A DNA stretch of 63,432 nt, counting the filler, from Asterionella formosa (taxonomy: Eukaryota): the NCBI GenBank assembly GCA_002256025.1. It is 16 parts of 16 records of this genome, joined end to end, with 100 filler letters (N's around TTAATTAATTAA, not from the genome) between each part and the next. Parts side by side here need not be neighbours in the genome. Positions count along the whole stretch, not along the records: positions 1 to 31,657 come from NKIB01000613.1; 15 more parts are not named here. The stretch is one strand, 5' to 3'. Both the position numbers and the translations under genes were made by a program. Positions within the stretch are counted from its first letter, which is position 1. Each line of letters opens with the position of its first letter. The notes under the pieces were generated by a model. It worked only from the letters and a program-made list of their open reading frames with translations, was not told where the DNA came from and did no database searches. Below are positions 4,967 to 45,719 of this stretch, in pieces.

Positions 4967-5655
4967 TTCTGTTTTCTGTGTTTTATGGAACACCAAAATG
5001 ACACGAACGGCCGCTTTGAGTCAGCGAGACACGCTTCTAAAAGGAAAGGTACGACCTGATATCTGATACCTGATGGGTCTCACTCGCTGCTCCAACAACC
5101 AAACACGTTGACGTTACTCTATTACCAAGGTAATGCTGTCGGACTGAATGGCAGATGCTGCCCAAGGTAGCTACGGGAGAGCGAGGATGTGAGAACAATT
5201 GATATATACCACGATGTTAACGGGAGACGACAGGGAAACGTACGATTCGCTATGTACTGTAGATGTGTGCGTCATACTGTGATCATGATGAGGCCTCAAT
5301 CGTATAATTATTCATAAATATTTTTATAACTCGCATTGTATTTCTTTTTAGCCTCTTGCAATTTCCTCATGTTTGTCTACAGCAGTAACTGGTACTACTC
5401 CGAATACTGGATACAGGACTGGCGAGTCACAATAAATAAGTATGGATGGGGGGGGGGTGCCACGCATGCACTAGCTATGTAGAACAATTGTAACCGGCAT
5501 GAATCTTTTCTTCCTCTGCTTCTTGCGTGGTCTTAGCAAAAGTTATAAAGGGCTTATACCATCTGTACATAAGCAAAATGCGGGTGGACACGGCGAATGT
5601 TAATACGTTGAGAGACAATACAACGGAGTACCTGGTACATGGTCCTCGTACCTGG

Positions 5656-5869
5656 TGAAGTATCTAACTAGAAGTGGTAGTATTTGTTATATATATGAGC
5701 TTATTTGTTAATCCTTGTGTGTAACTCGTTCTCTAAGTCGACACCAAAGTATACAATAAGGGTTAGTCGATCTCTCTCATTATTGAGTCTCATTATTGAG
5801 TTCTGATATACCGGTATATGATCTAACGCTAACCCTGTATATATCTGTATTGATGTGCAAGATCGCTCA
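5656..5869 (-). mobile_element. Solo LTR of a Ty3/Gypsy family with 5-bp TSD CCTGG
   Basis: TG...CA ends with CCTGG on both sides (5651-5655 and 5870-5874). Homologous to the LTRs at 31037-31233 and 45080-45280, which abut a PPT and integrase C-terminus. Confidence 0.85.
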
Positions 5870-6124
5870 CCTGGTACCTGGTACCTGAGGGTTATGTGGA
5901 CAGGGCCATTTGTGTACCGGTATATCTGTGTGACAGTATGTGGCCTGCCAATCAGTGCTGGGGGTCATTAATTTCAGGAGGATGTATACCCAGCGGATGA
6001 CTGTAATTCGGTCATCGATATTGTATATATGGGGAATACGAGATTTGTTTTCCTTGTTGGCATTGGAAGCACCAGGTACCAGGTAACCTGTTTATTGCAT
6101 ATGGTTCCCAATTCACCGCCCCTT

Positions 6125-6151
6125 TTTTAAGGTTCCTGCATTTGAACCCCT
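6125..6151 (+). repeat. Shared putative transposon terminus TTAA-GGTT(C/G)CTGCATTTGAACCCCTAG
   Basis: A near-identical 27-mer occurs in reverse orientation at about 51337-51364. TTAA followed by GG is compatible with a Kolobok-type end. Partner ends were not found. Confidence 0.4.
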
Positions 6152-9100
6152 AGCTCGAGGTAGGGTTAAAATAATAATAATAATGATAGTGAGTCAGACT
6201 ATTCAAACACCTACTTTTCACCTATAGAATAAAAATATGTGTAACACTCAACAGAGCTTTCACCATTAGACACCCTTTCCATATGCTTACATACATGCAG
6301 TCTTCGGACAAAGTAGGGGTGTAGGTCCACTCAATATGTTGTCAGGATATAGGATCTGGCGTGAAACTTCAGAAAGGACCTTCGGCTTTTTTACTATGCT
6401 AAAAAGACTAGAAAATTCGGGCGAAATCTGTTAATTTGTTTTAGTAAAAACAAAGTTACTTTCTGCAGTTTCTCGCCAGAAGATATATGCTGATGCTATT
6501 TGAAGGTTACCTATGTATGTATTGACATCGCCTTCAGACCCAGTCAACGTTGAGCTATGCATCATCATCCAAAAGTTCGACAAAATCGGCCTTTTTCTCC
6601 AGAATATCAGAATCACTAATCACCAAAACGTCATCATCGGAATGGTAGTCTTGTAAAAAAATTTTCAGTCGTAAAATCTGATGTGCAAAAAGTTCCATTG
6701 TAAGGGCCCGCTGCATTATGCATACTATTCTGATTGGTTATACTTACATCCATTCGATTGGTCTGATTTGCGAGGTCTTGCAATCCCATGCCCGCCGCAC
6801 TGGATACAAACAATTGCAACATTTTCTTGGGTGTTGGCCGATACAATATCCATGGGCTGACCTGGTATGGAGTAAGAGTATCTGGCACCCCTGGTACCGG
6901 TACCAGTAGCTGATCATCATTGGTCGTGGTAGTGTATGCAGACCATCAGTACATTTCAAGAATGCAATTTCATATATTTTCCAAGACACCGGGTCATACA
7001 TATGACACATATTTGTTGAACTGAGTATAATTCTGGTAGAGTAGCTATATTAACATTCAGCGATGGCGACTGTGCAAGTAAAGCAGACAGGGGAGACAAA
7101 TTACACCAACAAACCCTACACATTTATTCCGAAGTCTTCAATGACAAAGGCTGCCTACAGATAGGGGAGACATACTACACTGAAGACATTGAACAGACAT
7201 TTCGAAGCCTATGATGGAGAAGCCTGCCTTATTCTCTTGACATGGCAACAACATCATGCAGTCTTTGTCCCAGACAATACCATGTTACTAACTAATGCCG
7301 GAGGAAGGCATTGGATGTAACTGGGAAGAACTATGCACACTTGTCAGCTACCAAATGAATTGATAAGCGAATTCAACAATTCATTCAGAGATTCAGGCTG
7401 CAGCAGATCTGTGTTATAACTGGCTGTTACAATCATCTGTTGACCCTAATTCTGGTTAACACATTGAATTAAGGGGAGTAGCAGAGGAATATTGGAGCAT
7501 GCCACTGATATAATCATCATTCAATGGTGAACAGGAAGAGTAGTATGGTGATGACACGTATGAACAAAAAGGTACATATGTTGCATATGAGGAGGCCAAA
7601 CTTGAGTGAATGGATTTATGGGAGAATGTCTACTACTGCTACTGGCAGTATACCGGTAGTCATCTAGCCAACATCATATGTACGTGGTACCCGGTACTCG
7701 AAACAACAATGCATGGTTTAAGCTAAACTTTAATGCTTACTTTGAACACGTTATCATATTATCGCTGGAGACTCGGAAATGTTGAATTATATCGTTCACA
7801 TATTCATTGATTTTACGTACCACTGTATGCCCAATTTCGTCCTCACAATTATAATTCTCACTCTATCCTGCCTGCCGTTGCTCTTTTCAGGCTTGCAACA
7901 GGCAACATTTGTCTTTCTTTGATCCCATCATCTGCTGCATGTTCCACTTGTAAGAGCGGATCGGTGAGTACAACAGTGAAACACTGAATGTGGATTGTAG
8001 ATCCTATTTATTGAATTTCCAATTTGATTGCTTCCATGGTCTGTTTTGATCGCTTCCATCATTGTTTGTCGTTCCGAACTGTCATTTTGTTTCGATTGTA
8101 CATATCTACATAAGAACCAATGTATTTATCAATGACTACTCTTTGAAGATGTGGTATTGTGCTTTTGTTGATTTGTATAGTCGTTGAGTGACAATGCTGT
8201 CAATATTGCCGCCAAGCAATGCTTTTCTTGTACTAACGCGCTTTGCTACATTACTACTATGAGTTCTTATCAGAAGCTACGTATATTCAGCTAGAGGGAG
8301 TCGATGGTGCTGGAGCAGCCTGGCGAGTATTCTCAATCATAATGGATTGGATTGGAATGATGATCAGGGTTGTTTGGTGGGAGGAATGACTGTGGCGGAA
8401 AGACTGCTACTACTGGTGTCAGGCTAGTACAGCGATGTGCATGGTTGCAGCAACCAGATCATCTACACAACATAACGATACAGGTCTAAATTGGGTTCAG
8501 CTTTTTCCCTTCTTATTTCGGATTGTGTGGTGATGGACATTCAATTGCCTCTGTAAGTACTACAGTACAGTGTCACAATGCATATGCCTCCATTGAAACT
8601 CTCCATTTTACTTTATTTCTAACCCAAAACAATTTTTTCTGTTTTCTCATTTGATGCCACTTATTACATCGCATTTCATACTTTGGTTGCTCCAAGCATC
8701 ATGTTCAATTTTCATTTATGTTGCATGTCTCAATCATTCTCGTGTTTTTACGCTTGTTTTACCCTTTTTATGCATTTTACCGTTATTCTGGCTGTCATGC
8801 TAAACTCGGCAATTTTAATGCCGAAAAATTCGATGTGCCCCATATTGCCCCTAAATAAAAATAATTTAAGAAATTACTTAGAGCCTAAAAATTACTTAGA
8901 AGCACCCGAATGGCAAGACTATAGCTGGAGTGGGAATTGCCGCCATAAGTTTTGTCTCCCCATTGTACATCTGACACTCTGTATATATGACTATGAGCCC
9001 AAATATTTTGCAGAAAAATGGACATGTTATTTTTCTATTATAAGGTATAATAACTTTGTGTATCTTTGTGCTGGTCTAATTAAAAACAATACAACATGAT

Positions 9101-22896: not shown

Positions 22897-25179
22897 CTAT
22901 AGTGTCAGGCAAACCTCCGAGTAGCTATCGCAGCAATCAGTGCAGCATCCTTCTAGACAGCTTATAAGCGGAGCGACATCTGGGTTATCTGATCGGCAAT
23001 CGGCATCAATTTCCTTCAAACCTCTTGAACTACGGCGTTCGCAGACTTCAATCGGCATTGTGCCATTAAAATTGTTGAGCTGGAGCCAGAGGGTATCAAG
23101 TGTAGTGATATTACCCAATTGACTTGGGATGGTACCACTGAATTGGTTGCCCCGAATACGATAAAATGCCAAGTTGGTCAATTTGGCGATGCTCGAGCTG
23201 ATGGTTCCGGTCATGTTGCAGTCGTATACATCAAACCGGTTCAACTGAGCCATGTTGTAGAACTCCTCAGGGAAAGTTCCAGTTAGACTATTGAAATGAA
23301 TTCTCAAATCATTCATGTCTCGAAGTTTTCCAAATTCGGAAGGAATAGTACCAGAGTATAGATTTCGATGGATCCACATCTCTTGAACCTTTGTGAGGTT
23401 TCCAAGCTCGGTGGGGATCGTTCCGGTCATGAAGTTACGACCCCAACGCGTAAATGACAAAAACTTCAAGTCGCCAATTTCCGTTGGGATGGTACCATTG
23501 ATCATGTTTTCAAAAATGAAGAATCCCTTCATGGAACTTAGTGTACCAATCTCTGTTGAGAGCGTCCCCGTAAGCATATTTGCTCCAATATTGAGGCGCT
23601 GGATAGATTGTGACGAGTACCATGTTGCAGGAACTGAGCCAGTTAAAAAGTTATAGTGCAACTCAATATTGAGCAAATGTTTCATTGAAGCCAATTCAGT
23701 TGGAAGAGTACCGACTAACTCGTTCCAATTAAGTGTGATAGACTGCAAGTATGGCATAACAGCGATCTCAGTAGGGAAAGTTCCTCGTATTTTCAGCCCG
23801 GCTGGAGGGGATGTAAATAGAAATTTGAGGGATTAGAACAACAAAACGAGTGGCTACAAGTGCTTCAAAGGTATGGGATGAAAGAGACACTTACGAAGCT
23901 CAATGGCCCTGGTCTGGTTGTTTGCGTCACAAAAGACACCAGCCCAATCACATTCATGTTCTGATGTCAACCAACGGAACCAGGAAACATCTTCGTATAC
24001 CTCACGAGGGAAAACTTGAAGAAGTTTTTTGAATTGACAAGTATTATCTTCGCCCTCCATGGGCTTATTGCATGAGAGCCACGGCTGAATCTGGGTGGTG
24101 GATATATAGAAGAGCGCAAGGATGTAACGCTGTACAAAATTGTCAGCCTCAGGCGACAGTTCGGCAATATCTTCGTTTATAATCCAGTCCAAAGCCAGAG
24201 ACTGTGGCGAGTTGGGGTCAATCAGAAATTTCTCTCCAATGACCGAAGCGATCTGAGCTTGGATTCCGATGTTTTCTCGAACGGAAGTTGGCGCAAGAGT
24301 TGGTTGTGTCGCATTCCCCGAGAGAGTCACGGCGACAACTACTCCAACAACAATAACAATAAGTAGGATCAAAGCAATACAAGCATAAAGACGAACCCGG
24401 CGATTCTTACAAATCGGCGGCTTCGCACCTGGGTCGTACTCAATGGCCGCAGGAATGAATATCTCTTCCTCGTCCTCGTCCTCAGTAACAGCGACGGCTA
24501 CAGCAAGTCCTTGTTCGTATCCATGACCTCGCCCCCCGTTACTTCCGAATTCTAAATCAGGTTCGTTGATCCTACCTCGCGCAGTGGTAACTCTTTGAGG
24601 AGCAGACTCTTCAGTTTCCTTGTTCTTCTTCTCCTCTTTCTCATTTCCCTCCGGGCCACTGTTGAATTGTTGGTCGCCATCCATTTCGTCCCGATAGTCA
24701 GTTGACTTGACGACTGTAGTCGAACGACGAGTACCACGAACCTTGGCATTGATGCGGTTGTCCAATCGAGACACAATCTGGTCTTGGTCGTTGTGGTTGG
24801 CCGCCAGCATTCCACGAGAAACGTTGGTATTTCCAGACTGTTTCAAGGACACGGGAGTTTCCGACGTAGTCCTCCCATTGCGGAGGCTGACAGCCGCACC
24901 GCGATCCGGTTCATTGCTGTGAACTGAAGACGTGTCTCGTGGACATCTGGCAGGAGCGCCTGTGGAATTTGCAGCAGAAATGTCCGCTTCAAAGTCATTC
25001 AATGGCTGCCTGGTGGCCAGTGCTCTTCCCGGGTTCTGCTTTGCAGCAATACGTTCGTCGAGAATGTCGATTTCGGAGGTTCGGGCAGAATGAGCACCTG
25101 GTCTGCTGCTGTCGCTACTGGCATTAGATGTGTTCGGGAGTGCCGTACTCTTGGCAACTGATGCGTCTCGTGCCTCCAT
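22897..25179 (-). CDS. Type II membrane leucine-rich-repeat protein (2 exons: 25179-23895, 23801-22897)
   Basis: GTAAGT donor at 23894 and CAG acceptor at 23802 give a 93-bp phase-1 intron joining ...RAIEL-P-GLKIRGTFPTEI. Architecture: disordered N-terminus, TM helix, EC.WAGV.C cap, LxGTIPxEIGxL repeats and a Cys-rich ADC...CCTDCC end. Confidence 0.85.
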
Positions 25180-25190
25180 GATGGTGGACT

Positions 25191-25193
25191 CTG

Positions 25194-25247
<54 letters not shown>
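25191..25247. repeat. (CAG/CTG)n microsatellite, about 19 units, just upstream of the LRR start codon
   Basis: Read directly. It is not translated in the LRR frame: an upstream TAA precedes it and there is no ATG before 25179. Confidence 0.95.
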
Positions 25248-25249
<2 letters not shown>

Positions 25250-26639
25250 TCTTAGAGTCAGGTTCCCGCAGTTGTGTTTGTTGACCAATGATGAGAGTGA
25301 GAAGGATGGTTGTTGCTTTCACTGCAGTGCCTACATGTCCATATATTGCATATCTGTCGGGTTTTGGAAACAAAAGTGTGATATTTGCAAAAAGGCCCAG
25401 ATGGAAAAAGGTCATCCATGCAATCACGAATATGACACGAGAGAAAATGTCGGTACAGTATTCAACGCAACATTGTATTTATGCCGCGGTCACATTCGAG
25501 GGTATGTCTTTGTGCACAATCACGCTCTGGCAACAGTCAACATTAACACACACGGCAATGCAATGCAATGCAATCAAGCAACCAACAGGAGGCATGAATG
25601 TATTAACAAACACAAGCAAACAAGATGATTGCCACTCGTACCTCTCGATTGGAAGTTTCGACTCAACTGTTGCAACAAAAATCAAAGTGAAACGTCAATT
25701 TCTCCACTTGCTACTGATATTACAAAATAGCCAAAAATGGTGGAGTATACCGGTGTACCCAGTAAATGTTTCTGCTGCTGAAAAATAATGATAGGGCGGG
25801 CGGAAGAGCGATGGTTGTATAATTTACTACATACATATATATTACAGAAAAGGACACTCGACAAAGTCTACAAACCCTGATCGTGTACCTGTATATATGG
25901 ACGTACATAATTATTAACAAGCATACCATAGTACCCGTACCACTTCTGGTTGAAACAGATGAGAAAATGTCAAATATTTGTAAAGAAATATGACATACTG
26001 GTATACCAGTAGCTGATGCATACAATCCCACATAACAAATACCCGAATGTCATGTACCGGGATATTTTTACCGGTATATACATCAGCATCCCGAATGATC
26101 GCCAGGCCGGGACTGGCTACGGGTAGAATTTGTACCATTGAACCGTCCAGTAAATATTCAGTACTGGCAGTCAGTGTAAAATTGAACCGTCCAGTAAATA
26201 TTCAGTACCTGGTACTGGGGGGCAGTCAGTGTAAAAGCCCTTAAGGTAAAGCAACGAGGCAGGCTTGCACGACAAAAAAACATGATTCGATGTATGTTTT
26301 TATGATATATCGGTATACAATTATCCCATCGCGAAGAAAAGGTCATTCAGAAACGGAACGAAAAATGAGCATTCTTCAGTTGGAAACGAGACTTCTTTTT
26401 TTCAGATACCTGGTACCAGGTACCAGCTGTACATATATGTGCCGTATTAATGGTTTACAGTTTACAAACCAGTGTTGTAAATTTAAAACAATTACCTGTA
26501 AAGCGTGATACTGGGCAATATATGTTTTGAGATAGTTCCAGGGACCAGGTACCAGAAATATAGAAAATAATGACCAATTTTATAGCCCATTCGCACTCCC
26601 CTATTTCTAGGCAAGTATTCATTGTCATATCTGCCAACA

Positions 26640-27189: not shown

Positions 27190-29897
27190 CTAGTGGCGAA
27201 AAAGTTCGACACAATCGCCTTTAAAGGAGTCGCAACAACTTGTGCAGCACCCCACTTCGCAGGTAACAAGTGGTTCGACTGCAGGGTTGCCCGATCGGCA
27301 ATCCGCGTCAAGCCTGACCAACCCATCAGGACTTCGAAGTGCACAGACTGCACTAGGTACAGTACCAGCTATGTTATTGTGATTGATCCAGATAGCATTG
27401 ATGCTTGTAATGTTGGCCAATTCAGTTGGGATAGTACCACTGAGGTCGTTGTCACTAATACGGAAAATTGACAGATTCGACAGCTTACCAATTTGGGTGC
27501 TGATGGTCCCCGTCAAATTGCAGCCAAACGCGTCAAAACGGCTTAGCTGATTCATATTATAGCAAAGCTCAGGGATGGTCCCAGAAAAAAAGTTGCTATC
27601 TATTCGCAAGTCTTTCATGAATGCAAGATTCCCCAATTCGGAAGGGATTGCACCAGTAATCTGGTTGTCATAGATCCAGAGCTCTTCAAGCACGGCGAGC
27701 ATTCCAAGCTCGGTTGGAAGCGTCCCATGGATGACGTTGTGTCCCCAACGTGCATATGTCAAATACTGTAGCTTGCCGATTTCTGTGGGTATGGTGCCGT
27801 TAATCATGTTGTCAGCGAAGAAAAAACCGCTAAGGGAGGTGAGTTGGCCAATCGCTGTGTCTATCTGTCCTGTGAGATAATTTCCGGAAAAACTAATGCG
27901 ATCGAGGGCTTGAGAAGAGTACAATTCCTTGGGAATTACACCGGACAAGAAGTTGTATTGCAACTCAATGCTGACCAAATGTCTCATTTCAGCCAACTCT
28001 GATGGAATCTGGCCGTGGAGTTCGTTCCAGACTAAGTTTAGAGACTGCAAATATGTCAGTTTAGTGATAGCAATAGGAAGTGTTCCTTCGATTTGCTGTC
28101 CCGCTGGAAGTAGAAGACACAGTGTCAGAGTAGAAAAAGCATAACTCAATATACTCTCGCAAATGCGACAGTTTCCTTACAAAGTTCAATGGATCTAGTA
28201 TAGTTGTTATCGTCACACCCGACACCAGCCCAAGTGCACTCATGTTCTTCAGACACCCAACGATTCCATTCTACGTCTTCGTAGGTCTCATTAGGAAAGG
28301 TTTGAACAAGTGCTTTGAAAATACAGGAAGAACTTTCGCCTTCCTTGGGCCGGTTGCACGAAAGCCATGGCTTCACCTGCGTTGTGGAAATGTAGAAGAC
28401 GACCATGAGATAGCGCTGAATAAGGTTTTCGGCTTCCGGCGGAAGCTTGGCTGGATCCTCGTTAATGATCCAATCCATAGCAAGATATTGGGAGGAGTTG
28501 GGGTCGCTGAGTGCACCCTCTCCAACCACAGCAATGATCTGATCTTGTATTTGGAGGGTTTCACGCAGAGTGGTAGGAGTAAGCGTAGGCTGCTGTGGCT
28601 GCTGCTCGCTGCCGCCCGAATAAATCACACCGACAGCGACCCCAATCGTTACAACAACTAATAGGATCAACGACACAAAACCACAAAGAAGAGTCCGATG
28701 GTTTCTGTAAAGATGCTTCTTGGCATAGGCGTCATACTCGATTGCAGCAGGAATTTCCGATTTTTCCTCGTCGTCTTCCAGGACTGCTTTGGCGATAGCA
28801 AGTTCCTCGTGTTGGCATGTTCCGCATTCGACATCGTTTTGATTGATTTCGCTATCATCGTTATTAATAGCAGATCGATCATGCTCCTCTATGCATCCCT
28901 TTTTGTCAACAACTGGAGCCCCATTTATCGTGCGGTTGGTATGTGTACCGTTCCAGGTGCTAGATTCCTCTACGGGGTCCTTACTGATAGCACGAACACC
29001 TCGAATCTTGGCATCGATGCGTTCGTCCAAACGGGAGACACCATTACTGTTGTTTGAATTGATACTACGAGATGGCGTTAGTTCCGGGAAGGAACTCGGC
29101 TGGGACATGGAGGACATTGATGATGTGGATGCGATACTGTGAGCACGACTTCCCTTGACACGGGCCTTCGCAGCGACCTTTTCTTCCATTGATGCCAATT
29201 GACCGGAAAAAGTAGTTGTAGATGCAGAATGTGCAGACGTGGCGTCGCTACCACCAAAACTAGAAGGAACAAAGCCAGAAATTTTGGCAGCGATGCGCTT
29301 GTCCAAACTATCTACCTGATTCTCCCCAATAGACTGGATTCCATTGGCAAGACGATCACGACGCCGGGCAATGGAGTTGTCACGAACATGTGAGTCGCGA
29401 GCGTCAGCTTTGACATGCTTTTGAACGAGGCCCAGTCCTGAGCTCGCTGGTTCACTACAGCGAAACGATGACTTGACAGCAATTCGTGCATCCAGGCGAG
29501 CAGCCTCGTCCCTGCCGATGGCGATAGCTCCTGGGGTGGTAGCAGGGGAAGGGGTGCCACAATCTTTTGACATTGTTACAGAGTCAGCTTTCGCCTCATT
29601 CTTCAATGCTTGTTTCCTGGAAGATGAGCCTTTTGTTCCCAACAAACGTCCCTGATTTAGCTTAAGGGCAATGCGTTGATCCAAGCTAACAGCTGGAGCC
29701 CCACTAACGCTTTGAGCACCTGGGGAGATAGCATTGGTGGGATAAAACATGTTGACCTTCCTTGCAATACGCTTGTCAAGCTTTGTCGCTTCATCGTTTC
29801 CAACTGATTGAGCACCTACTGTTCCCGTGCCGAATTGACTGTAGTGGGTCTTGCTTTTGGCGAGAACTTCTAGTTCTTTCATTGTTTCTGATTTCAT
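27190..29897 (-). CDS. Type II membrane leucine-rich-repeat protein, tandem paralog (2 exons: 29897-28181, 28103-27190)
   Basis: GTAAGG donor at 28180 and CAG acceptor at 28104 give a 77-bp intron at the same position and phase as in the paralog (...RSIEL-S-GQQIEGTLP). Same TM, cap, LRR and C-terminal Cys motif. Confidence 0.85.
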
Positions 29898-30543
29898 TGT
29901 TTCTGATATAGATTTGGCAAACTGAAACGGCTTCTTGCGTCGTTGTTCTCGCGAAGTTCTGAAATTTATGAGATGTTGCGGATTTGGATGAAACTGAGAC
30001 AGTCAGGGTTCCCGGCAAAACTACCAAAGTGTGTAAGAATGCCAGAATGTTTTTTACTGGCATTCTCCGGTGCAAATAACTGATGAGAGTCAATAAATGA
30101 GCGTCTCTTTTCGCGTTGTCGCAAGTCATTTCACATCAAAAGGCAATCGCACGCATGCCCTCTCTGTGGTCTGAAAGCCCAATGAGCATGTAGCCCTCCC
30201 GGAAGGACACAAACAAAATCAGCCGGAAAGCAACTGTAACATAGTCGGGAGCATCGCATCGAAATCCATTCTTTCGATTGGTGAGGTGCTCAGGAGGATG
30301 AAACAATAATCGCGTCAAGCAGGATGAGTAAACACGATTTCGAAACGCGAGGCGGCATGGTCTATAGTTTGTTTTTCTAGAACCAATGTTCGTTACTGTC
30401 CAGCATGGCATACCCATGGAGTGAATGACCGCAGTACCGGTAATAGAGCATAAAATCATTATGATATACAGTAGACATTATGATATTAGAGGTACTGGCA
30501 TTACTACATTTATATGTGTATAAGTAATTTCTAGTACAAGAAT

Positions 30544-30913: not shown

Positions 30914-31036
30914 AAATAAAACCGCTAAATATACTATAGTAGCTATAAGCATTATAGTACCGGTAGAGTATGAGATGCTCATCGATTGGTAAACTACAGT
31001 ACTGGTACCGGTATACTGGTGAGAACTGGTACCTGG

Positions 31037-31400
31037 TGAAGTATCTAACTAGAAGTAGTAGTATTTGTTGAATATATGAGCTTATTTGTTAATCCTTGTG
31101 TGTAACTCGTTCTCCAAGTCGACACCAAAGTATACAATGAGGGTTAGTCGAGTTCTCTCATTATTGAGTTCTGATACATATATGATATAACACTAACCCT
31201 ATATACATCTGTATTGATGCGCAAGATCGCTCACTCTCCCACACCAAGGGAAAACCTTTTACCTTTGAAAAGGTTTGATGTAATGGATATTAATTCGTTC
31301 CGTTGTATGCATAGTTTGTTGAAAAGTAACTGTACCATAGGATTCGATAGTGATGTAGGAATAACAATACGTCAAGTATCTCCTGGATTCTTTACAAAAT
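31037..31400 (-). mobile_element. Ty3/Gypsy 3' end: degenerate integrase C-terminus, PPT and 3' LTR (31037-31233)
   Basis: The minus strand reads YGTVTFQQTMHTTERINIHYIKPFQR*, then GTGTGGGAGAG (PPT) and the TG...CA LTR. Outer flank is CCTGG (31032-31036). Confidence 0.75.
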
Positions 31401-31657
31401 ACATGAAATGTATATGATGAAAATTGATAGAGGGAAAATTTAACAGATGTGTTTGGTTTGTTGATTGAGAATGAGATGAGTTGTTTGATTGAGAATCAAT
31501 TGTATATCCAGCAATTGTCTATCATGTATTGAGTAATATTCCAGAGGATATTGAATATTGTCTGCCAAAATTGGATGATTGAGGGAACAGGTAAACAAAG
31601 GTTCATCATCTACTTCAATTGAGAAAGTAGAAATGGATGTTGATGCTGAAGATTTCG

Positions 31658-31757: not shown

Positions 31758-33779
31758 ACTGTCCCCAGTTGGTACCAGGGCACCGCTCTCCTCCGTCCCC
31801 ACTGCCAAGTCATCAATGAAGATGTTGAACAGTATAGGCGAAAGAGGGCAACCCTGCCGCACACCTCGCAACAGTCTGCAGGGGTCCGAGTACAGGGCAG
31901 TCAAGCCACCCCCCACTCGTACCCTGATTGTACTGCTGCGATAAAGGGCACGTAGAAAAGCAAGGCAACGTCCCCTGATCCCAAACCTGGATAGTTTCGC
32001 AAAGAGCGCCTCGTGGGGCACCGTATCATATGCCTTCTTGAGGTCTACGAATACCACGTAGGTCGGCTCTCCCACTATCCTCCGGCGTTGTATGATTTCC
32101 ATGACACAGGCTACCTGGGTTACACATTCCTCTCTCTGGCGAAAGCCAGCCTGGGCTCGGCTAAACAGCCCTCGAGATTCCGCTTCCACATTTATCCTGG
32201 TACCAAGGATCACACACACCACCTTGAGGACAGTGGCCATGAGCGAAATCCCCCGATAGTTGTTCATATCAGCCAAGTCCCCTTTCTTAGGTATTGAGAC
32301 GACCAGTGACTCAGCCCACGACTGGGCCACCAGTCCCCTCTCATACGCAAAGTTGAGTAGGGTTCCTAGTGAGTCCGTCATTGGAGCGGATGGTGGCGGG
32401 GCGGGCTCCTCTTCCCGATAGTTTTGAAGGTGGGAAAGTAGGGCCCGTTCCTCCGCCAAACATGCCTGTAGCAGTTCAGTGGGTATCCCGTCACCGCCCG
32501 GAGCACGATGGCTCTTCATCTTCCTCAGGGCAGTCCAAATATCGGAGGTTGTGAAGGGTTCGTCCAGCGAACGGATCCCCTCATTTGCCTGTGGGTGCGG
32601 GTCAAATTTCTCCCAATATTGGGCCTCCTGGCTATGACCGGTTTCATCTGCTGCTAGAGAGGCATAGTGCGCTCCCCAGGCCTGATGAATATCAGTCAAA
32701 GCTGTCAGCAGGCGTCCGTCCGGGCCAAGGACCGGTTGGACACCTGCGATGCTGCTCTTCTGGCGCCATCCTGCAGTCGCTGAGGCCCACCGCCAATAGT
32801 GGCGAGGTTTCTCGCGCATATTGACGTGCGCCTCCCTAATTGCCTTATACCATGCCCGCCTACCCGAGAGGCGGATCACCTTCCGCGCCCTCTCTTTGGC
32901 AGCCTTGTACATGTCCCCAAGCCGTGCTACATCTTCACGGTCTCCTCGCGACTCCGCCCTCCGGGTTTCCCGGAAGATCCTCCTTCGGGTCTCAATCGCC
33001 CGACGTACCTGTCCTGTCACTCTTGGTGGGTTTTGTCCCGCCACCCGTTGGTGGAGGTTCAGGTCCTCTGCCACCTGGTGACATGTTGTAGTGAACTTCT
33101 TGGCCATACCATCCAACCTTTCCTGGTGGTAACTGGTGGGGTTTTCGAGTGAATGTGAACACTCGATTACATCCTCCAGGTCCTCCTCCAGCGAGTCAGC
33201 TAGTGGCTGCCAATAATTACTACTAGCCACGGTTACTTTGAGTTCCTTCTTCTCCATCACAATCCGCCGGTACAGTGATTCCGGCCGTGGTGGGGCAATC
33301 CCCATCTCTGGGATTCTGGTAAGCCCAGGTAGGTCCGCAACAACTGGGAAGTGGTCCGAAATATCCCATGTGTCGAGGACCCTGGCAGGGGGGACAGCCG
33401 CCACTGTGTCACCACAATATGTGATGAAATCAATGGCAGGTGTTGGCTGTCCCTCCCGCCGGCTTTGGCGAGTGGAGGCCCCCCCTCGGATGGGTAACAC
33501 CCGAAAGGGAAGCCGCCACGGTCCCATCAGAATCTGCAACTCCGTCATCTTCATGTTGAAGTCTCCCATCATCACAATGGGATCTTCTGGAAACTCCCGA
33601 TGTAGAGCGTCCAAGGCTCGGGGCAGGGCCCTGAGCACTCGGATGCGATCCGCTCTGCATGGGACATAGATTGTTCCCACAAGAATAGGCCTCAAGAGCG
33701 TGGCCCCATAGACTCTCGCAAAAGTCCAAAATGGTGTGGCCTTACCAACTGGGGTACAGTTGAATTTGGTCGACACCAG
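31758..33779 (-). mobile_element. Non-LTR retrotransposon (LINE) ORF fragment: AP endonuclease C-half plus RT N-half, open throughout
   Basis: APE motifs MMGDFN, IDFI, SDHFPV. RT motifs APGGDG, IPKKGD, NYRGISL, QAGFR, FVDLKKAYD, GVRQGCPLSPILFNIFIDDL. Confidence 0.95.
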
Positions 33780-33879
33780 NNNNNNNNNNNNNNNNNNNNN
33801 NNNNNNNNNNNNNNNNNNNNNNNTTAATTAATTAANNNNNNNNNNNNNNNNNNNNNNNNNNNNNNNNNNNNNNNNNNNN

Positions 33880-35901
33880 ACTGTCCCCAGTTGGTACCAG
33901 GGCACCGCTCTCCTCCGTCCCCACTGCCAAGTCATCAATGAAGATGTTGAACAGTATAGGCGAAAGAGGGCAACCCTGCCGCACACCTCGCAACAGTCTG
34001 CAGGGGTCCGAGTACAGGGCAGTCAAGCCACCCCCCACTCGTACCCTGATTGTACTGCTGCGATAAAGGGCACGTAGAAAAGCAAGGCAACGTCCCCTGA
34101 TCCCAAACCGGGATAGTTTCGCAAAGAGCGCCTCGTGGGGCACCGTATCATATGCCTTCTTGAGGTCTACGAATACCACTTAGGTCGGCTCTCCCACTAT
34201 CCTCTGGCGTTGTATGATTTCCATGACACAGGCTACCTGGGTTACACATTCCTCTCTCTGGCGAAAGCCAGCCTGGGCTCGGCTAAACAGCCCTCGAGAT
34301 TCCGCTTCCACATTTATCCTGGTACCAAGGATCACACACACCACCTTGAGGACAGTGGCCATGAGCGAAATCCCCCGATAGTTGTTCATATCAGCCAAGT
34401 CCCCTTTCTTCGGTATTGAGACGACCAGTGACTCAGCCCACGACTGGGCCACCAGTCCCCTCTCATACGCAAAGTTGAGTAGGGTTCCTAGTGAGTCCGT
34501 CATTGGAGCGGATGGTGGCGGGGCGGGCTCCTCTTCCCGATAGTTTTGAAGGTGGGAAAGTAGGGCCCGTTCCTCCGCCAAACATGCCTGTAGCAGTTCA
34601 GTGGGTATCCCGTCACCGCCCGGAGCACGATGGCTCTTCATCTTCCTCAGGGCAGTCCAAATATCGGAGGTTGTGAAGGGTTCGTCCAGCGAACGGATCC
34701 CCTCATTTGCCTGTGGGTGCGGGTCAAATTTCTCCCAATATTGGGCCTCCTGGCTATGACCGGTTTCATCTGCTGCTAGAGAGGCATAGTGCGCTCCCCA
34801 GGCCTGATGAATATCAGTCAAAGCTGTCAGCAGGCGTCCGTCCGGGCCAAGGACCGGTTGGACACCTGCGATGCTGCTCTTCTGGCGCCATCCTGCAGTC
34901 GCTGAGGCCCACCGCCAATAGTGGCGAGGTTTCTCGCGCATATTGACGTGAGCCTCCCTAATTGCCTTATACCATGCCCGCCTACCCGAGAGGCGGATCA
35001 CCTTCCGCGCCCTCTCTTTGGCAGCCTTGTACATGTCCCCAAGCCGTGCTACATCTTCACGGTCTCCTCGCGACTCCGCCCTCCGGGTTTCCCGGAAAAT
35101 CCTCCTTCGGGTCTCAATCGCCCGACGTACCTGTCCTGTCACTCTTGGTGGGTTTTGTCCCGCCACCCGTTGGTGGAGGTTCAGGTCCTCTGCCACCTGG
35201 TGACATGTTGTAGTGAACTTCTTGGCCATACCATCCAACCTTTCCTGGTGGTAACCGGTGGGGTTTTCGAGTGAATGTGAACACTCGATTACATCCTCCA
35301 GGTCCTCCTCCAGCGAGTCAGCTAGTGGCTGCCAATAGTTACTACTAGCCACGGTTACTTTGAGCTCCTTCTCCTCCATCACAATCCGCCGGTACAGTGA
35401 TTCCGGCCGTGGTGGGGCAATCCCCATCTCTGGGATTCTGGTAAGCCCAGGTAGGTCCGCAACAACTGGGAAGTGGTCCGAAATATCCCATGTGTCGAGG
35501 ACCCTGGCAGGGGGGACAGCCGCCACTGTGTCACCACAATATGTGATGAAATCAATGGCAGGTGTTGGCTGTCCCTCCCGCCGGCTTTGGCGAGTGGAGG
35601 CCCCCCCTCGGATGGGTAACACCCGAAAGGGAAGCCGCCACGGTCCCATCAGAATCTGCAACTCCGTCATCTTCATGTTGAAGTCTCCCATCATCACAAT
35701 GGGATCTTCTGGAAACTCCCGATGTAGAGCGTCCAAGGCTCGGGGCAGGGCCCTGAGCACTCGGATGCGATCCGCTCTGCATGGGACATAGATTGTTCCC
35801 ACAAGAATAGGCCTCAAGAGCGTGGCCCCATAGACTCTCGCAAAAGTCCAAAATGGTGTGGCCTTACCAACTGGGGTACAGTTGAATTTGGTCGACACCA
35901 G
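33880..35901 (-). pseudogene. Second near-identical LINE copy with a premature stop in RT
   Basis: Same 2022-bp boundaries as 31758-33779 with scattered SNPs; TAC>TAA at 34180-34182 (GEPT*VVFVD). Confidence 0.9.
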
Positions 35902-38123: not shown

Positions 38124-40144
38124 AACGCTTTTATTTACAAAGCAGAAAGAGGGAGAAAGTCTACAAGACTACACCAAGAGATTCCGTGTGGCACGTGATG
38201 TGCTCAAGTCACACATGGGAGGACCCATTATCCTCACCAAGTTCGTTGAAGCCATAGATGGATACAACGAGACCGACATCAAGCAACGAGATAAATTTCG
38301 TGAACAAGCTTTCAGTCAATTTATGGCATATTTATATCTCGATAATGCCGACAAGACCAAATACGGATCAATTATGACCGGGCTGAACACTCAACAGTCA
38401 CTCGGCAACGATCAATACCCGAAGAGCATCACCGAATCAAACAATGTTCTCAGCAACCATCGGTTTGACGTAACAAATAAATCTGTCTACAAGAAACCAG
38501 GAGATAATGATAAAGAGAGGAAACAAAAGGATGGAGGCAAGGAAGACGAAGATGTGAACTTATCGTTTGCACAGTTAGAAGGAAAATGTTACTGCTGCGG
38601 AAAAGCAGGTCACAAATCTCCTTCGTGTCGAGACAAGAATAAACCCAAAGAGGAATGGGCAATTAACAAGGCCCAAAGCCATGCACAGGCACAGGCTAAT
38701 ACATCCGACACAAGTACAGTTACCTCTGTTAATTCCAACAACCCACCGTCATCACAAGCTTCACAACAAGCAAATGCCAATCAATTTGGATGGATGGGAG
38801 CTCATATGAAACTACAATTTTACCAAGCATCTGTGATGCGTGACTGGATACTATTGGATAATCAATCAAGTGTCACAGTCTTTTGCAATCCAAAAATGGT
38901 TAATAACATTCGAATGTCAACCAACGGAAGCATGCACCTGGCCATAAATGGTGGATCCATGGTAACTAATATGAAGGCTGATCTTCCAGAATGGGGAGAA
39001 GTATGGTTTAATGAAAAGGCAATCACAAACATCTTCAGTTATGCCGAAATGGCAGATAGGTACAGAATTACCTATGACTCTGAGAAAGAAGATGCATTCA
39101 TTGTTCATTTGCCTGACAAAACAGTTCGATTTGAAAGAATTGGGATGAACTTATATGTTTTCAAGCCAACTACAAGAACGAGAGCGGAGAATGCTCAAAT
39201 GTTAAATACACTTGAAGAAAACAAAACATTTTACACTGAACGTCAATTTCAGAGAGCTAAGCGAGCTCGTGATCTATTTCATGCCTTGGGTACACCATCA
39301 ATTAATGATTTCAAGGCAATAATTCGTATGAATACGATCAACAATAATCCAGTGACTACCGATGATATCAAAATTGCAGAGAAAATTTTTGGGCCTGACA
39401 TCGGAACACTAAAAGGCAAGACAACTCGTCGCAAGCCGCTGCCAGTCGTGAACGACTACATCGAGATTCCTAAGGAGCTTATCCAAGCTCAACGCGAAGT
39501 GACTCTTTGCATGGACGGAATGAAAGTCAATGGACAATCATTTCTCACAACAATTTCTCGAAACATTATGTACAGGACAGCGCAATGGGTCAAGAATCAG
39601 ACAGCTGAAGTCTATCGAGATGCTTTGATTCAAGTATTCCGTGTTTATAATACCGGAGGATTTAAAATTACAACAATCCACTGTGACAACGAGTTTCGAC
39701 CTTTGATGGAACAAATTTCCAATGAATTTCAAGTCACTATGAACTACGCAAACCCACAAGAACATGTTCCCGAAGCGGAGCGAAATAATCGAGTGATTAA
39801 AGAACGCGTGCGCGCAGCTTATCATCGATTACCTTTCAAACATTTGCCGCGACTGATGATTAAGATTCTAGTCACAGAATCTGCAAGGAAACTGAATTTC
39901 TTTCCGGCAAAGAACGGGATATCCCCGTATTACAGTCCTCGTATGATTTTACATCAACGAAACCTGGACTATGCTCGACATTGCCAGTATACATTTGGCA
40001 CTTATGTCCAAGCACATGAAGAACCTGTGTTTTCAAACACAAATGCACCTCGCAGCCTAGATTGCATTTTTCTACGCTACAATGACAATGTGCAAGGAGG
40101 TCATGAATTGTTACACCTACCTACAAATTCATTGATCACTAGAC
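38124..40144 (+). mobile_element. Ty1/copia (CoDi-type) gag-protease-integrase fragment with intact ORF
   Basis: Zn knuckle CYCCGKAGHKSPSC, protease WILLDNQSS, integrase LCMDGM / HCDNEF / EHVPEAERNNRVIKER. Open across the whole contig. Confidence 0.95.
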
Positions 40145-40244
40145 NNNNNNNNNNNNNNNNNNNNNNNNNNNNNNNNNNNNNNNNNNNNTTAATTAATTAA
40201 NNNNNNNNNNNNNNNNNNNNNNNNNNNNNNNNNNNNNNNNNNNN

Positions 40245-42265
40245 CGGGCCAGAGCTTATGCCAAGGCCTCGGGTCTCAAAACCTGGCTTCAGGAATTGGT
40301 CCTAAGACCATTCCGAAGTCAGAAATGGACATGGTGCTCGGGGGTTCCGCGCTGGCTGAAACGCTATGCGCTCCCCCATGCGCCAGTGTCTATTGTGGAG
40401 AGGTACCGGTACTTGGGTGCTGGATGGCAGAGCCTGGAACCAAAGGTACTGGCTGAGGTAGTGAAAGCATGCATCTTGGAGAGAGAGTGTGGGATCCGAC
40501 GGAATTTGACTCGTCCGTCGGGGGCCCGCACAGTGTGGTATGAGGGAGCCGGATTTGACAAGCATCCACTCACACGGTCACGTGTGGGGGGCAGTCCCAA
40601 AGACCAAGCAGGACTGGCTTTGATAGTTCGGTGTCGGATTGGGGCATTTGTAACTGTCCCCACCTTGGTGGGGTGGAAGCGAATGCCTCATAGGTATTTG
40701 AGGAAGTGTCCATTTTGTGGTATGGATGAACCAGAAACGCTGGAACACTTAGTGTTCACGTGTGGTCGGTGGCGTGGTCTACGCACCGAGCCACACATGG
40801 CAGAATTGATCGCGAAAGTTCGGACAATCAGGGTACGAGTGGGGGGTGGCTTGACTGCCCTTTACTCGGACCCCTGCAGACTGTTGCGAGGTGTGCGGCA
40901 GGGTTGCCCTCTTTCGCCTATACTGTTCAACATCTTCATTGATGACTTGGCAGTGGGGACGGAGGAGAGCGGTGCCCTGGTACCAACTGGGGACAGTCGC
41001 ACATGGCGGAACTCCACACTGACAGTGGGATGTACCCTCTTTGCTGATGATGCGGCCGGAATCTGCCCCTCCCTGGAGGCGGCCAAACGGTTCTGTACGC
41101 ACGTTACCAACTGGGTTACAGCTAACGAGATGAGTGTGGGCATAGGGAAGTGCGGGCTGATGGAATTCCTACCGCCAGACCCAGACCCGGCCACCGAACC
41201 GCTTGTCCCTGGACAAGATGTGGCTGGACTGGAACTGGAGGGACTTCCACTCCCTGTTGTGGACAGATATATGTATCTGGGTGTCCTCATGACACCAGGT
41301 CTGTCTATCTTGTCTATGGTGGACCATAGAGTCAAGCAAGGGCGGGCCACAGTTGCCACCTTGGTACCGTTTCTACGGTGCCCGGTGGTACCAATGGCCA
41401 TGCGTTTGCTGACTGTTGCAGGAGTAGTTGCCCCCCGCCTCCTTTTTGGGGCTGAGCTGTATGGTATGAACCGTCACCTTACGGACAAAATGCAGGTTCT
41501 TCTGAACCGATGCCTTAGGGCTAGCATTGGAGCCAGGAGGGCAGGGGATGTGCCATCAGTAGGCCTTTGGAAGGAGGCACGGATGTTGCCAATGTGTGCC
41601 TTGGCGGGTGCCCGACGGGCCAGAGCTTATGCCAAGGCCTCGGGGCTCAAAACCTGGCTTCAGGAATTGGTCCTAAGACCATTCCGAAGTCAGAAATGGA
41701 CATGGTGCTCGGGGGTTCCGCGCTGGCTGAAACGCTATGCGCTCCCCCATGCGCCAGTGTCTATTGTGGAGAGGTACCGGTACTTGGGTGCTGGATGGCA
41801 GAGCCTGGAACCAAAGGTACTGGCTGAGGTAGTGAAAGCATGCATTTTGGAGAGAGAGTGTGGGATCCGACGGAACTTGACTCGTCCGTCGGGGGCCCGC
41901 ACAGTGTGGTATGAGGGAGCCGGATTTGACAAGCATCCACTCACACGGTCACGTGTGGGGGGCAGTCCCAAAGACCAAGCAGGACTGGCTTTGATAGTTC
42001 GGTGTCGGATTGGGGCATTTGTAACTGTCCCCACCTTGGTGGGGTGGAAGCGAATGCCTCATAGGTATTTGAGGAAGTGTCCATTTTGTGGTATGGATGA
42101 ACCAGAAACGCTGGAACACTTAGTGTTCACGTGTGGTCGGTGGCGTGTTCTACGTACCGAGCCACACATGGCAGAATTGATCGCGAAAGTTCGGACGTTA
42201 GGGCCGAATTTCGCCCTCGGTTTTGACCAACAACGGTTGGCATGGCTCCTCGGAGGGAGTTGTGA
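40245..42265 (+). mobile_element. LINE 3' region (RT core LFADD, C-terminal CPFC..HLVFTC zinc finger) with an in-frame 1371-bp tandem junction
   Basis: 40245-40825 repeats at 41616-42196. The RT segment overlaps the copies at 31758 and 33880 (IRVRVGGGLTALYSD...PTGDS). Confidence 0.9.
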
Positions 42266-43001: not shown

Positions 43002-44879
43002 TGTACAACTGCTACCGGTACCTTTTACCTTGAACCCGTGAATCTACATGCCGGAGTTACGGGGTACTACCGAATTCTACAGAGTGACGAATCTACCGGT
43101 AGCAATTTACCGATGTTGCGTTCCCTGGTAGACAACCGTTGCCGGTAAATGCTACCTACAAGTCGCGGTCATTCGGCAAAAAAAAATTTAATTTAGGATA
43201 AACATAGCTAAAGTTTTAGATACAGCACAATTACAGCAACTTGCTGGTACCTGGTTAACTACCGTTACCTATGTGGCTGCTGTGTGCCAGGTATCTGATA
43301 CCTCTTGCCGGTAGATGTGATTAACAGTACGGTATGCTAGACATTTTCCATTTCTACATCTGTCTCGAAATGCGGTACAAACTGGAACCGGTTGACCAGG
43401 CACTGGAGTACCGGTACCTGGAATCAGGTGCGTACTCCTAGTATACTGGTATTCAGCCAATCCTCCAATCAGGTGCATCGATTTGCAGCGACCAACGTAG
43501 GAGGGTACATCCACCCCATGGACATTCCTGTCGTTGCTGTTTTCATAACCATACTAGACCCGGTAAGCAGGAAAACCTGACGACGATTTGTTGATAATGC
43601 TTGATTACGTCATGTCACGATTCAATCTTAAATTCAGTACTTTTTTTCCTGCTGGGATGATACCGGTAGTTTCTCTTTGAGTCTTGTGCTTGCTTCCTGA
43701 ACTTTGAGACCAGGTACAAGGTAAGCCATGGTACGCTCCGAACACAATTTAATGGAAATAACGAATTACTTCCTGTATGTATGGTTCAGGAAGAAGCACA
43801 AAACCTCCCGACATTCGAGGTCAATATTTTTAGTACATACGTCCTTATCATATCAGAAATATTGCTCAGCCTAATAATGTTACATGGTACCAGGTACCAC
43901 CAAGTGCCGTACCCGGAGCAATACAAAAAGATTTACCGAGTAAAGACAACGGAATATTATGGCTACGGTACTACCGGTATTTTTTTTGTAGTTTGTATGT
44001 ATGCATGTATGGCTGTCATCAGCTCCGTACACTTATGTATTTCTTGCTCAAATGAAAATGTGAGTTCGTGTTCTGCAAAGGCAGGAAAAGTGCCGGCGTC
44101 ATGCTTCTTCCGCCATTTTATGTGTTTTTTTTCAAGTGTTTCTGCTATGATCCACATTCACCATTCTTTCCTGATAGCAAACTGTGACGTGCATTCTTTG
44201 AGTTGACGGCATTCCGAAACAACTCACTGTTGCTCTCACACTTTCACAATTACTCAATCATCACACGCAACAGTTAGGCCAGCCATTATAATGAGCAGCG
44301 ATAAAGACGAAAGCTGCTTGTCTCTGTATGGGCCATATCCATTGGCCATTCCGATTCCCTACGTAAGCAAGGACGAAGCCCCAGGNNNNNNNNNNNNNNN
44401 NNNNNNNNNNNNNNNNNNNNNNNNNNNNNTTAATTAATTAANNNNNNNNNNNNNNNNNNNNNNNNNNNNNNNNNNNNNNNNNNNNCTTGTCATACCGATA
44501 TTTGTTTAAGGTCACTTGTCATACCGATATTTGTTTAAGGTCACACTTGTAGCATCAAAATTTTTCCCTTTGAAGTAAGACTGCGCCAGGTTTTTTCATG
44601 TAGATTGTAGGTTCTGTTGGTACAAAGATGAAGTCATGGCTGCGCCAGGATTTTTGACCCTCTGAATTCATAAAGACAACATTTAACCACCACTGTGCAC
44701 AATATATGTTTTCAACATGGGGACGACCCTTAAAAGCAGCATCCCCTTCTAGCTTTTCAGCGCCTCACCATTAACAAATCCTACATCAGCCAAGAACTCA
44801 CATATTGTTTGTTGAAACAATAGAAGGTGGAATGACACAACATTGAGATCGTAAGCAATCAATGCTTTTAAATGATATT

Positions 44880-45280
44880 TCGTAAAGTGACAAGATTTTA
44901 ATATTATTGGATAATCCTACTACTTTGGATAATCGTGGATGAGGTCCTTATACTATTATTCAAGTACATGCCAATGGTACAGTTACTTTTCAACGCACTA
45001 TGCACATTACAGAACGAATTAATATTCGTCGTATCAAACCTTTTCATAGGTAAAAGGTTTTCCCTCAAGTGTGGGAGAGTGAGCAATCCTGCACATCGAT
45101 ACAGATGTATATAGGGTTAGGGTTATATCAAATATATCGGAATTCAATAATGAGAGAACTCGACTAACACCCATTCTATACTTTGATTTCAGTTCAGGAA
45201 ATGAGTTGTACGTAAGGATTAATTAATAAGCTCATATACCGGTATTCAACAAATACTACTACTTCTAGATAGATACTTCA
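44880..45280 (+). mobile_element. Ty3/Gypsy 3' end: integrase GPY/F tail, PPT and LTR (45080-45280)
   Basis: Reads LLDNPTTLDNRG*GPYTIIQVHANGTVTFQRTMHITERINIRRIKPFHR*, then GTGTGGGAGAG and TGAGC...TTCA, followed by CCAGG. Confidence 0.85.
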
Positions 45281-45719
45281 CCAGGTTCCGGTACCGTAGT
45301 CTACCGGTAGTTTCCTCGGAGCAGTGCACCGGTACATCCTTTCTCTACGGCAGTTTCTTCCGTCATTTGTTCCTGTGTTAATATATATATATATAGGTAT
45401 ATCAATATATATTCTACATGTAGAAAACGCACAGAGTGAATGCCGCGCACCCACCTGGTCAAGTACTCCAGGTAGCGGTAGTACAGGTGTGTATGTAGTA
45501 TAAGCCATCATCATCATCATAATCATCATTTTGATGCTTTCATTGTGTGCCTCACCTCACCTCACCTTGCCTCGCCTCGCCTTTGTTGTTGTCTAAAGCA
45601 AAAGAGAGGATCAACAGCAACTCTGTTGTAGCGCCTCCCATGGAATAAATCAAGTTTGTTTGCGCTCATTCATTCATTCATTCATTCATTGTCGTCATTT
45701 GAGACGTGCACGTCTCAGA

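Follow-up and report, generated by a model that had tools for sequence, protein, structure and literature searches.

Background

Strict sequence-specific integration is rare among retroviruses and long terminal repeat (LTR) retrotransposons. The yeast elements Ty3, Ty1, Ty5 and Tf1 are steered by host proteins to non-coding DNA upstream of genes (Ty3 integration, for instance, is positioned by TFIIIB), and their target site duplications (TSDs) have no fixed sequence. A defined palindrome, i.e. TATA/CGCG/ATAT, has been described for the Drosophila errantiviruses and for elements derived from them that have two open reading frames (ORFs), that is the gypsy, ZAM and Idefix subgroups of Ty3/Gypsy, and the available part of the review concerned calls strict sequence specificity exclusive to this group (PMC5408687). 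Here we describe a stretch of 63,432 nucleotides from the diatom Asterionella formosa (GenBank assembly GCA_002256025.1), hereafter the window, which carries three copies of a high-copy element that by its sequence belongs to the Ty3/Gypsy LTR retrotransposons and that, like the errantiviruses, is found at a specific palindrome.

The element works like an errantivirus but is not one. Its TSD is 5 bp long and reads CCWGG (W being A or T), as against the 4 bp given for errantiviruses in the accessible text of PMC3276498, and the TATA/CGCG/ATAT core is absent. Further differences are its ordinary TG..CA ends, the lack of room for an env gene, a GC-cored motif of 11-13 bp and the diatom host. With the tethered yeast elements (as named in the part of PMC5408687 at hand) it shares non-coding sites upstream of genes, whereas its TSD is nearly fixed. 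Among diatom elements it is probably of the GyDi type (Ty3/Gypsy; Maumus et al. 2009, PMC2806351), a placement by description rather than by phylogeny, which relies on the host group and on the shared order of protease, reverse transcriptase, RNase H and integrase (PR-RT-RH-IN), as judged from profile matches and the DDE motif. The sections of PMC2806351 available report no target specificity for GyDi; a supplement listed there contains GyDi TSDs and may bear on novelty. Our literature search, whose coverage left out most subscription journals and Repbase Reports, returned no description of target-specific diatom Gypsy elements.

The target is a palindrome longer than the duplication

From the three copies in the window alone, the sequence-only reading had proposed that the family inserts into CCWGG, the core of an abundant intergenic motif. 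Genome-wide, the last 19 LTR bases (the exact 3' end) occur 539 times, and because 229 of these, the 5' LTRs, continue as CA-CTTTG into the internal region (here and below the hyphen marks the LTR edge), the LTR end is fixed at CA. Exact CCWGG follows in 209 of the 310 remaining, outer 3' junctions and TAC at +6..+8 in 242; on the 5' side CCWGG-TG was counted by hand in 68 of 98 junctions among the matches listed (first 100 of 246, two polypurine-tract rows dropped). CCTGG thus lies outside the LTR, as had been held, on the strength of the 5' LTRs and the 5' junctions; the original argument from the polypurine tract was incomplete, because both non-solo copies in the window are 3' LTRs and show the same end.

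The fetched loci contain 92 distinct junctions, with CCWGG in 69, TAC in 76 and both in 64, against a background per position of 0.57% (CCWGG) and 3.1% (TAC) in the local flanks of the same loci, and of 0.20% and 1.6% in contig C613, which makes up positions 1-31657 of the window. TAC follows CCWGG in 64 of the 69 junctions, versus 54% of CCWGG in the local flanks and 24/128 in C613, and it is kept in 12 of the 23 junctions that lack CCWGG. The central base is A in 41 and T in 43 junctions. When the uncorrected column values are added up, the target logo holds about 16 bits across 13 positions, with 1.2-1.5 bits at seven of the first eight. Conservation of TAC/GTA on either side of the duplication is at least as strong as that of CCWGG itself, and the real target read from the junctions is a longer palindrome, (G)GTA^CCWGG^TAC(C), used in both orientations. 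Insertion into CCWGG is therewith strongly supported by hundreds of junctions, by TSD pairs and by a Copia control (below), with the correction that the target is wider than had been proposed.

Both ends were read in 15 insertions, on contigs that had been picked from the listings because both ends were present: the TSD is identical in 11, has one mismatch in two and is unmatched in two. All 11 identical pairs agree in the central A/T, which would be expected about once in 2000 under independent flanks. As a control, a Copia family residing in this genome carries CCWGG at 3 of 85 outer junctions (hand count; 91 rows, of which six primer-binding-site rows were dropped) and has varied 6-bp TSDs, with five identical pairs and one pair with a single mismatch among its solo LTRs. 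No second LTR family at GTACCWGG-TG was evident among the matches listed (first 100 of 1780).

These data bear on the idea that there is no targeting at all, i.e. that random insertion with selection against copies in genes, segmental duplication of a few insertions, an LTR ending in CCWGG, or later insertion of the motif produced the pattern. The abundance of the motif, its insertion into old LTR copies and some duplicate flanks in the assembly fit this idea, which we nevertheless regard as very improbable. Junction flanks are independent because 49 distinct 40-mers were found among 52 3' junctions and 16 among 16 on the 5' side, which goes against duplication; an LTR that includes CCWGG is at odds with the 5' LTRs ending in CA-CTTTG; selection cannot set the register to one base, and the Copia family is under the same selection; late motif insertions require and duplicate TA rather than CCWGG; and the central TSD base agrees in 11/11 CCWGG pairs. 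All four variants are accordingly rejected, and with them the concern that the TSDs might be random or the loci copies of a single duplicated insertion. Capture of complementary DNA at an excision break was rejected by inference, since the TG..CA ends are intact and the 5-bp TSD is matched, both indicating integrase. What is observed is insertion of the integrase type, its 5-bp stagger lying at the centre of the palindrome, with a register, TSD and motif specific to this family, in both orientations.

Three copies in the window

The window is composed of contigs joined by N spacers; beyond C613, positions 31658-63432 are made up of some 15 short contigs, each about 2 kb long, with N runs and one TTAATTAATTAA spacer in between. 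The copies and their surroundings are as follows.

5648..5655, plus strand: GTA and the first CCTGG TSD copy (5651-5655), forming the target palindrome's left half
5656..5869, sense on the minus strand: solo LTR of 214 bp, TG..CA
5870..5885, plus strand: second CCTGG TSD copy (5870-5874), then TACC and an extra CCTGGTA unit, i.e. a (CCWGGTA)n array
31029..31036, plus strand: outer flank of the 3' LTR, GTA and CCTGG (on the element strand CCAGG-TAC)
31037..31233, minus strand: 197-bp 3' LTR belonging to a young copy
31234..31244, minus strand: polypurine tract GTGTGGGAGAG adjoining the LTR
31245..31657, minus strand: 3' end of the internal region, truncated by the contig end, 83% to 44971-45309
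44486..45053, plus strand: degenerate 3' internal region, terminating in an integrase C-terminus (…ERINIRRIKPFHR) that matches that of open copies
45069..45079, plus strand: polypurine tract
45080..45280, plus strand: 3' LTR of a second subfamily, on a different contig from 1-31657, with a 6-bp TACCGG insertion
45281..45288, plus strand: outer flank CCAGG-TTC, one mismatch to CCWGG-TAC

When the solo LTR, with its perfect CCTGG duplication, is removed in silico, the joined flanks read GTA-CCTGG-TACC. The same 5-mer stands at the outer edge of the other two copies (TACCTGG-TG at 31030-31038 and CA-CCAGG at 45279-45285), the more distant flanks being different; in all of this, coordinates included, the sequence-only reading was right. 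On the element strand both of these copies have the polypurine tract GTGTGGGAGAG before and CCAGG after the LTR, that is they are 3' LTRs. The three copies are 74-86% alike with unlike flanks, and an internal TACCGGTA present in the solo LTR is missing from the copy at 31037, whose LTR is 100% identical in 19 of 29 other fetched loci.

In each of three other public runs (two studies), 10-14 contigs part from the window sequence exactly at 5648; the shared stretch runs from the LTR outward to this position, the G of GTACCTGG, and these contigs represent other insertions with the same flank. A contig joint that skips 5630-5921 was considered as an empty site and dropped, as it is not clean (20 foreign letters, 25-base sides). 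Elsewhere in the genome two family elements were inserted into a single array at a distance of one heptamer, CA-CCAGGTACCTGG-TG (L034:1247-1260).

The element and its proteins

The assignment to Ty3/Gypsy relies on TG..CA ends, a polypurine tract ahead of the 3' LTR, a TSD in the 4-6 bp range and the pol order PR-RT-RH-IN, which is found in a single frame of 1194 amino acids in a 98%-identical metagenome copy (L086: RVP 148-240, RVT_1 394-551, RT_RNaseH 614-735, Integrase_H2C2 860-915); RT-RH-IN is likewise present in a copy from the genome itself (L081). The integrase comprises an HHCC finger, the DDE triad and a GPY/F module, and its stop lies about 25 bp before the 3' LTR. A search for a chromodomain gave no Chromo match at E 0.1, the integrase ending after the GPY/F module with no additional targeting module, and pol stops so close to the 3' LTR that there is no room for env as a third ORF. 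The element thus does not appear to be a chromovirus. Its integrase retrieved 567 candidates, of which 150 were scored, with dozens at an identical score and without a stop; these, together with the 19 of 29 loci identical to the 31037 copy, point to a recent expansion of the family. Among the Atlas clusters, those closest to the integrase mostly bear Bacillariophyta labels, on one or two members each, and most of those closest to a neighbouring host gene are labelled likewise, in keeping with a diatom host.

In many copies of the 31037 LTR subfamily (L032, L033, window 31245-31657) the internal region is decayed or deleted and no long ORF remains, while the LTRs are identical and the target is the same; such copies are probably non-autonomous and moved in trans.

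A transfer RNA (tRNA) primer-binding site after the 5' LTR is usual for Ty3/Gypsy elements, if not universal. Here the 5' LTR is followed not by TGG but by a 12-bp palindrome, TTTGAATTCAAA (host tRNA sequences were not compared), and perfect palindromes of 10-12 bp stand at this position after 5' LTRs (e.g. L033:655-670, TTTGAATTCAAA). Relatives (L087, L140, L143, L161, L088, L110) have differing palindromes there (CTGTAATTACAG, CTGTTATAACAG, CTTTGATCAAAG, CTATTATAATAG, TCTGATCAGA), and members of the Copia family (L202, L238, L239, L241) have CGCTTTAAAGCG at the primer-binding-site position. The primer-site palindrome resembles the Conserved Hairpin Site of the fungal Copia element GalEa, as described in the available part of PMC5445492.

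How the target may be recognised

Direct sequence readout by the integrase is, in our view, the best explanation and a fairly probable one, with the integrase as the reader being what we infer. A recently expanded Ty3/Gypsy element would integrate in the usual way, its intasome making two strand transfers at a distance of 5 bp and so producing the 5-bp TSD, and the integrase would read its target directly and symmetrically, GTA just outside each cut and CC-W-GG between the cuts. The roughly 17,500 perfect host words in non-coding DNA would offer abundant sites outside reading frames. The preference may go back to a weak bias of integrases in general towards GT(A)/(T)AC outside the cut, which would have become stronger in this lineage. 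The cut is symmetric across the motif, changes in the core are tolerated if TAC is kept, the sister word TACCGGTA, which has a 4-bp core, is not used and a tethering module is lacking, which together favour direct readout. In the same flanks TACCGGTA is about as common as the target word (46 versus 50), yet it is found at the junction in just 1 of 92, so spacing matters.

Known integrases offer parallels. For HIV-1 (human immunodeficiency virus type 1) and PFV (prototype foamy virus), the passages of PMC4005685 at our disposal describe contacts of residue S119 and A188, respectively, with the bases that lie three positions beyond the cut; a small alanine at this residue position favours G-3,T-2 / A6,C7 (Serrao 2014, same source). 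The resulting bias (HIV-1 S119A, PFV A188) has the same GT at -3,-2 and AC at +6,+7 around a 5-bp cut, and the diatom integrase, aligned to a lentiviral one, also has a small residue, glycine, at the equivalent position (DNG-G-EF). The retroviral bias is nevertheless weak and statistical (PMC4005685, as far as available), whereas the diatom element reaches about 80-90% per position with a fixed core. According to the accessible part of PMC2527525, the integrase of ZAM acts on its target directly, by binding and nicking it. Palindromic targets are general among LTR elements, going by the available text of PMC3276498; strength and length stand out here.

Two other explanations accept that insertion is targeted. 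According to the first, a host protein on the GGTACCWGGTACC motif, which could be a transposase or a factor of transcription or chromatin, would tether the intasome or bend the DNA and thereby position it. We consider this unlikely, though deserving of some weight: the motif is host-wide (17,533 copies) and non-coding, and the Copia family and the distant relatives in other hosts, both treated below, also speak for it, but the cuts are placed within the motif and symmetrically about its centre instead of beside it, degenerate cores are used when TAC is kept (12/23), the sister motif TACCGGTA is used in 1/92 and the integrase has no tail past the GPY/F module. A cut centred on the palindrome is what a two-fold intasome would be expected to produce, while a bound host protein would rather cover the motif.

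The second dispenses with a base code and supposes that the bendability or groove shape of TA-CCWGG-TA is preferred, with open promoter chromatin supplying the sites. It appears improbable, as a shape preference usually yields less information per position than the 1.2-1.5 bits seen at seven of the first eight, and as CCWGG still dominates where many TA-N5-TA sites are available. The flexible TA steps on both sides of the cut would agree with it, as would two published observations, known to us from parts of the papers, namely that retroviral integrases favour bendable targets (PMC4005685) and that palindromic target motifs reach past the TSD in all LTR families (PMC3276498).

Several points weigh against readout by the integrase. 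The glycine is common to several relatives, and the five outer junctions readable among relatives are not CCWGG, so it cannot be the whole story; something besides it must supply the strength and the CCWGG core. Alignment of the integrase with its relatives gave no unique residue tied to the target, the responsible residue thus not being found. Relatives at 43-58% integrase identity yielded five readable outer junctions in 78 metagenome loci, most of which were assembled from LTR to internal region, and 0/5 are CCWGG (CAGAG, AACCC, GAGGA, GTCTA and, on the 5' side, TTTTG); five junctions are weak evidence for an absence of CCWGG targeting across the clade. At the junctions of the Copia control, TAC is weakly favoured immediately outside the 6-bp TSD (16/85 by hand versus a background of 2.4%) and the flanks are motif-rich. 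Two other Copia elements, the only full-length ones with both LTRs among 20 stretches, occupy motif-like sites:

L199:1097-1101 and 6722-6726 (approximate): Copia TSD CCTGG, LTR ends AG..CT
L208:2931-2936 and 8201-8206 (approximate): Copia TSD CCAGGG within GGTA..TACC

The bias and these TSDs hint that motif-rich DNA attracts several families through something on the host side. Moreover, about one third of the junctions depart from exact CCWGG. The assembly behind the genome-wide junction counts is fragmented, some flanks in them are duplicates (3 surplus rows in 52), and single insertions enter them with both ends. An empty allele of the solo LTR at 5656-5869 was not seen in the contigs of four runs, an absence that proves nothing.

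The host motif

GTACCWGGTAC occurs 17,533 times in the genome, i.e. once per 3.9 kb, as against 117 for the reversed control, and it is far too rare for chance hits in register. In the ORFs of C613 (at least 150 amino acids), which cover 49% of the contig, CCWGGTAC is found in 0 of 13 cases, compared with 30 of 64 for all CCWGG, and the motif sites cluster upstream of genes. The suggestion that such sites are safe havens holds only in the sense that they lie outside long ORFs.

The motif comes into being through insertions at TA, in which the TA is duplicated. The 159 gaps in old element copies include one 7-bp TA-CCTGG-TA insertion and four rows with a 6-bp TA-CCGG-TA insertion, and a 6-bp allele difference at TACCGGTA at 5914 is present in two of four runs. 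The earlier proposal that the motif is a DNA-transposon footprint has therewith been tested in part: it does arise as insertions of 6-7 bp at TA, and an excision footprint of a DNA transposon, for instance of the Tc1/mariner type, is a lead. The TSDs of the LTR element were rejected as the origin of the host motif, motif insertions duplicating TA. Old copies (L070-L082 versus L086) also have many insertions of 3-4 bp at TA (TAC, TAG, CTA, GCTA, TAGC), which resemble footprints of other TA-targeting transposons.

A combined scenario, in which a compact Gypsy integrase, without host tether, adapted, with a specificity close to that of a restriction enzyme, to the 11-13 bp palindrome that excision scars of a DNA transposon keep making in non-coding DNA, is possible, if on balance doubtful.

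Other features of the window

A second repeat of very high copy number begins at TTAA-GGTTCC (6127-6400+), where depth jumps and many loose ends occur at 6127; it has a short match at 51336-51366, and its other end was searched for and not found. TTAA followed by a purine pair is reminiscent of Kolobok-type DNA transposons. On several of the short contigs a non-LTR retrotransposon with reverse transcriptase and an APE-type endonuclease is represented by near-identical (99%) pieces (31758-35901, 38124-42265 and 46605-48623), and a tandem pair of leucine-rich repeat genes, 66% alike, lies at 22897-25251 and 27190-30002.

Conclusions

The diatom element would provide a second, independent case of strict sequence specificity in an LTR element, one whose target is longer (about 16 bits) and whose integrase is plain, with hundreds of natural junctions and close relatives that lack CCWGG at the five junctions read. 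How a DDE integrase gains base-specific recognition thereby becomes directly testable, and the enzyme could provide a site-directed integrase for algal genetics. For the organism, the placement of a retrotransposon would be tied to a self-renewing motif on the promoter side of genes; if the combined scenario is true, one mobile element lands in the pre-tested, tolerated scars of another.
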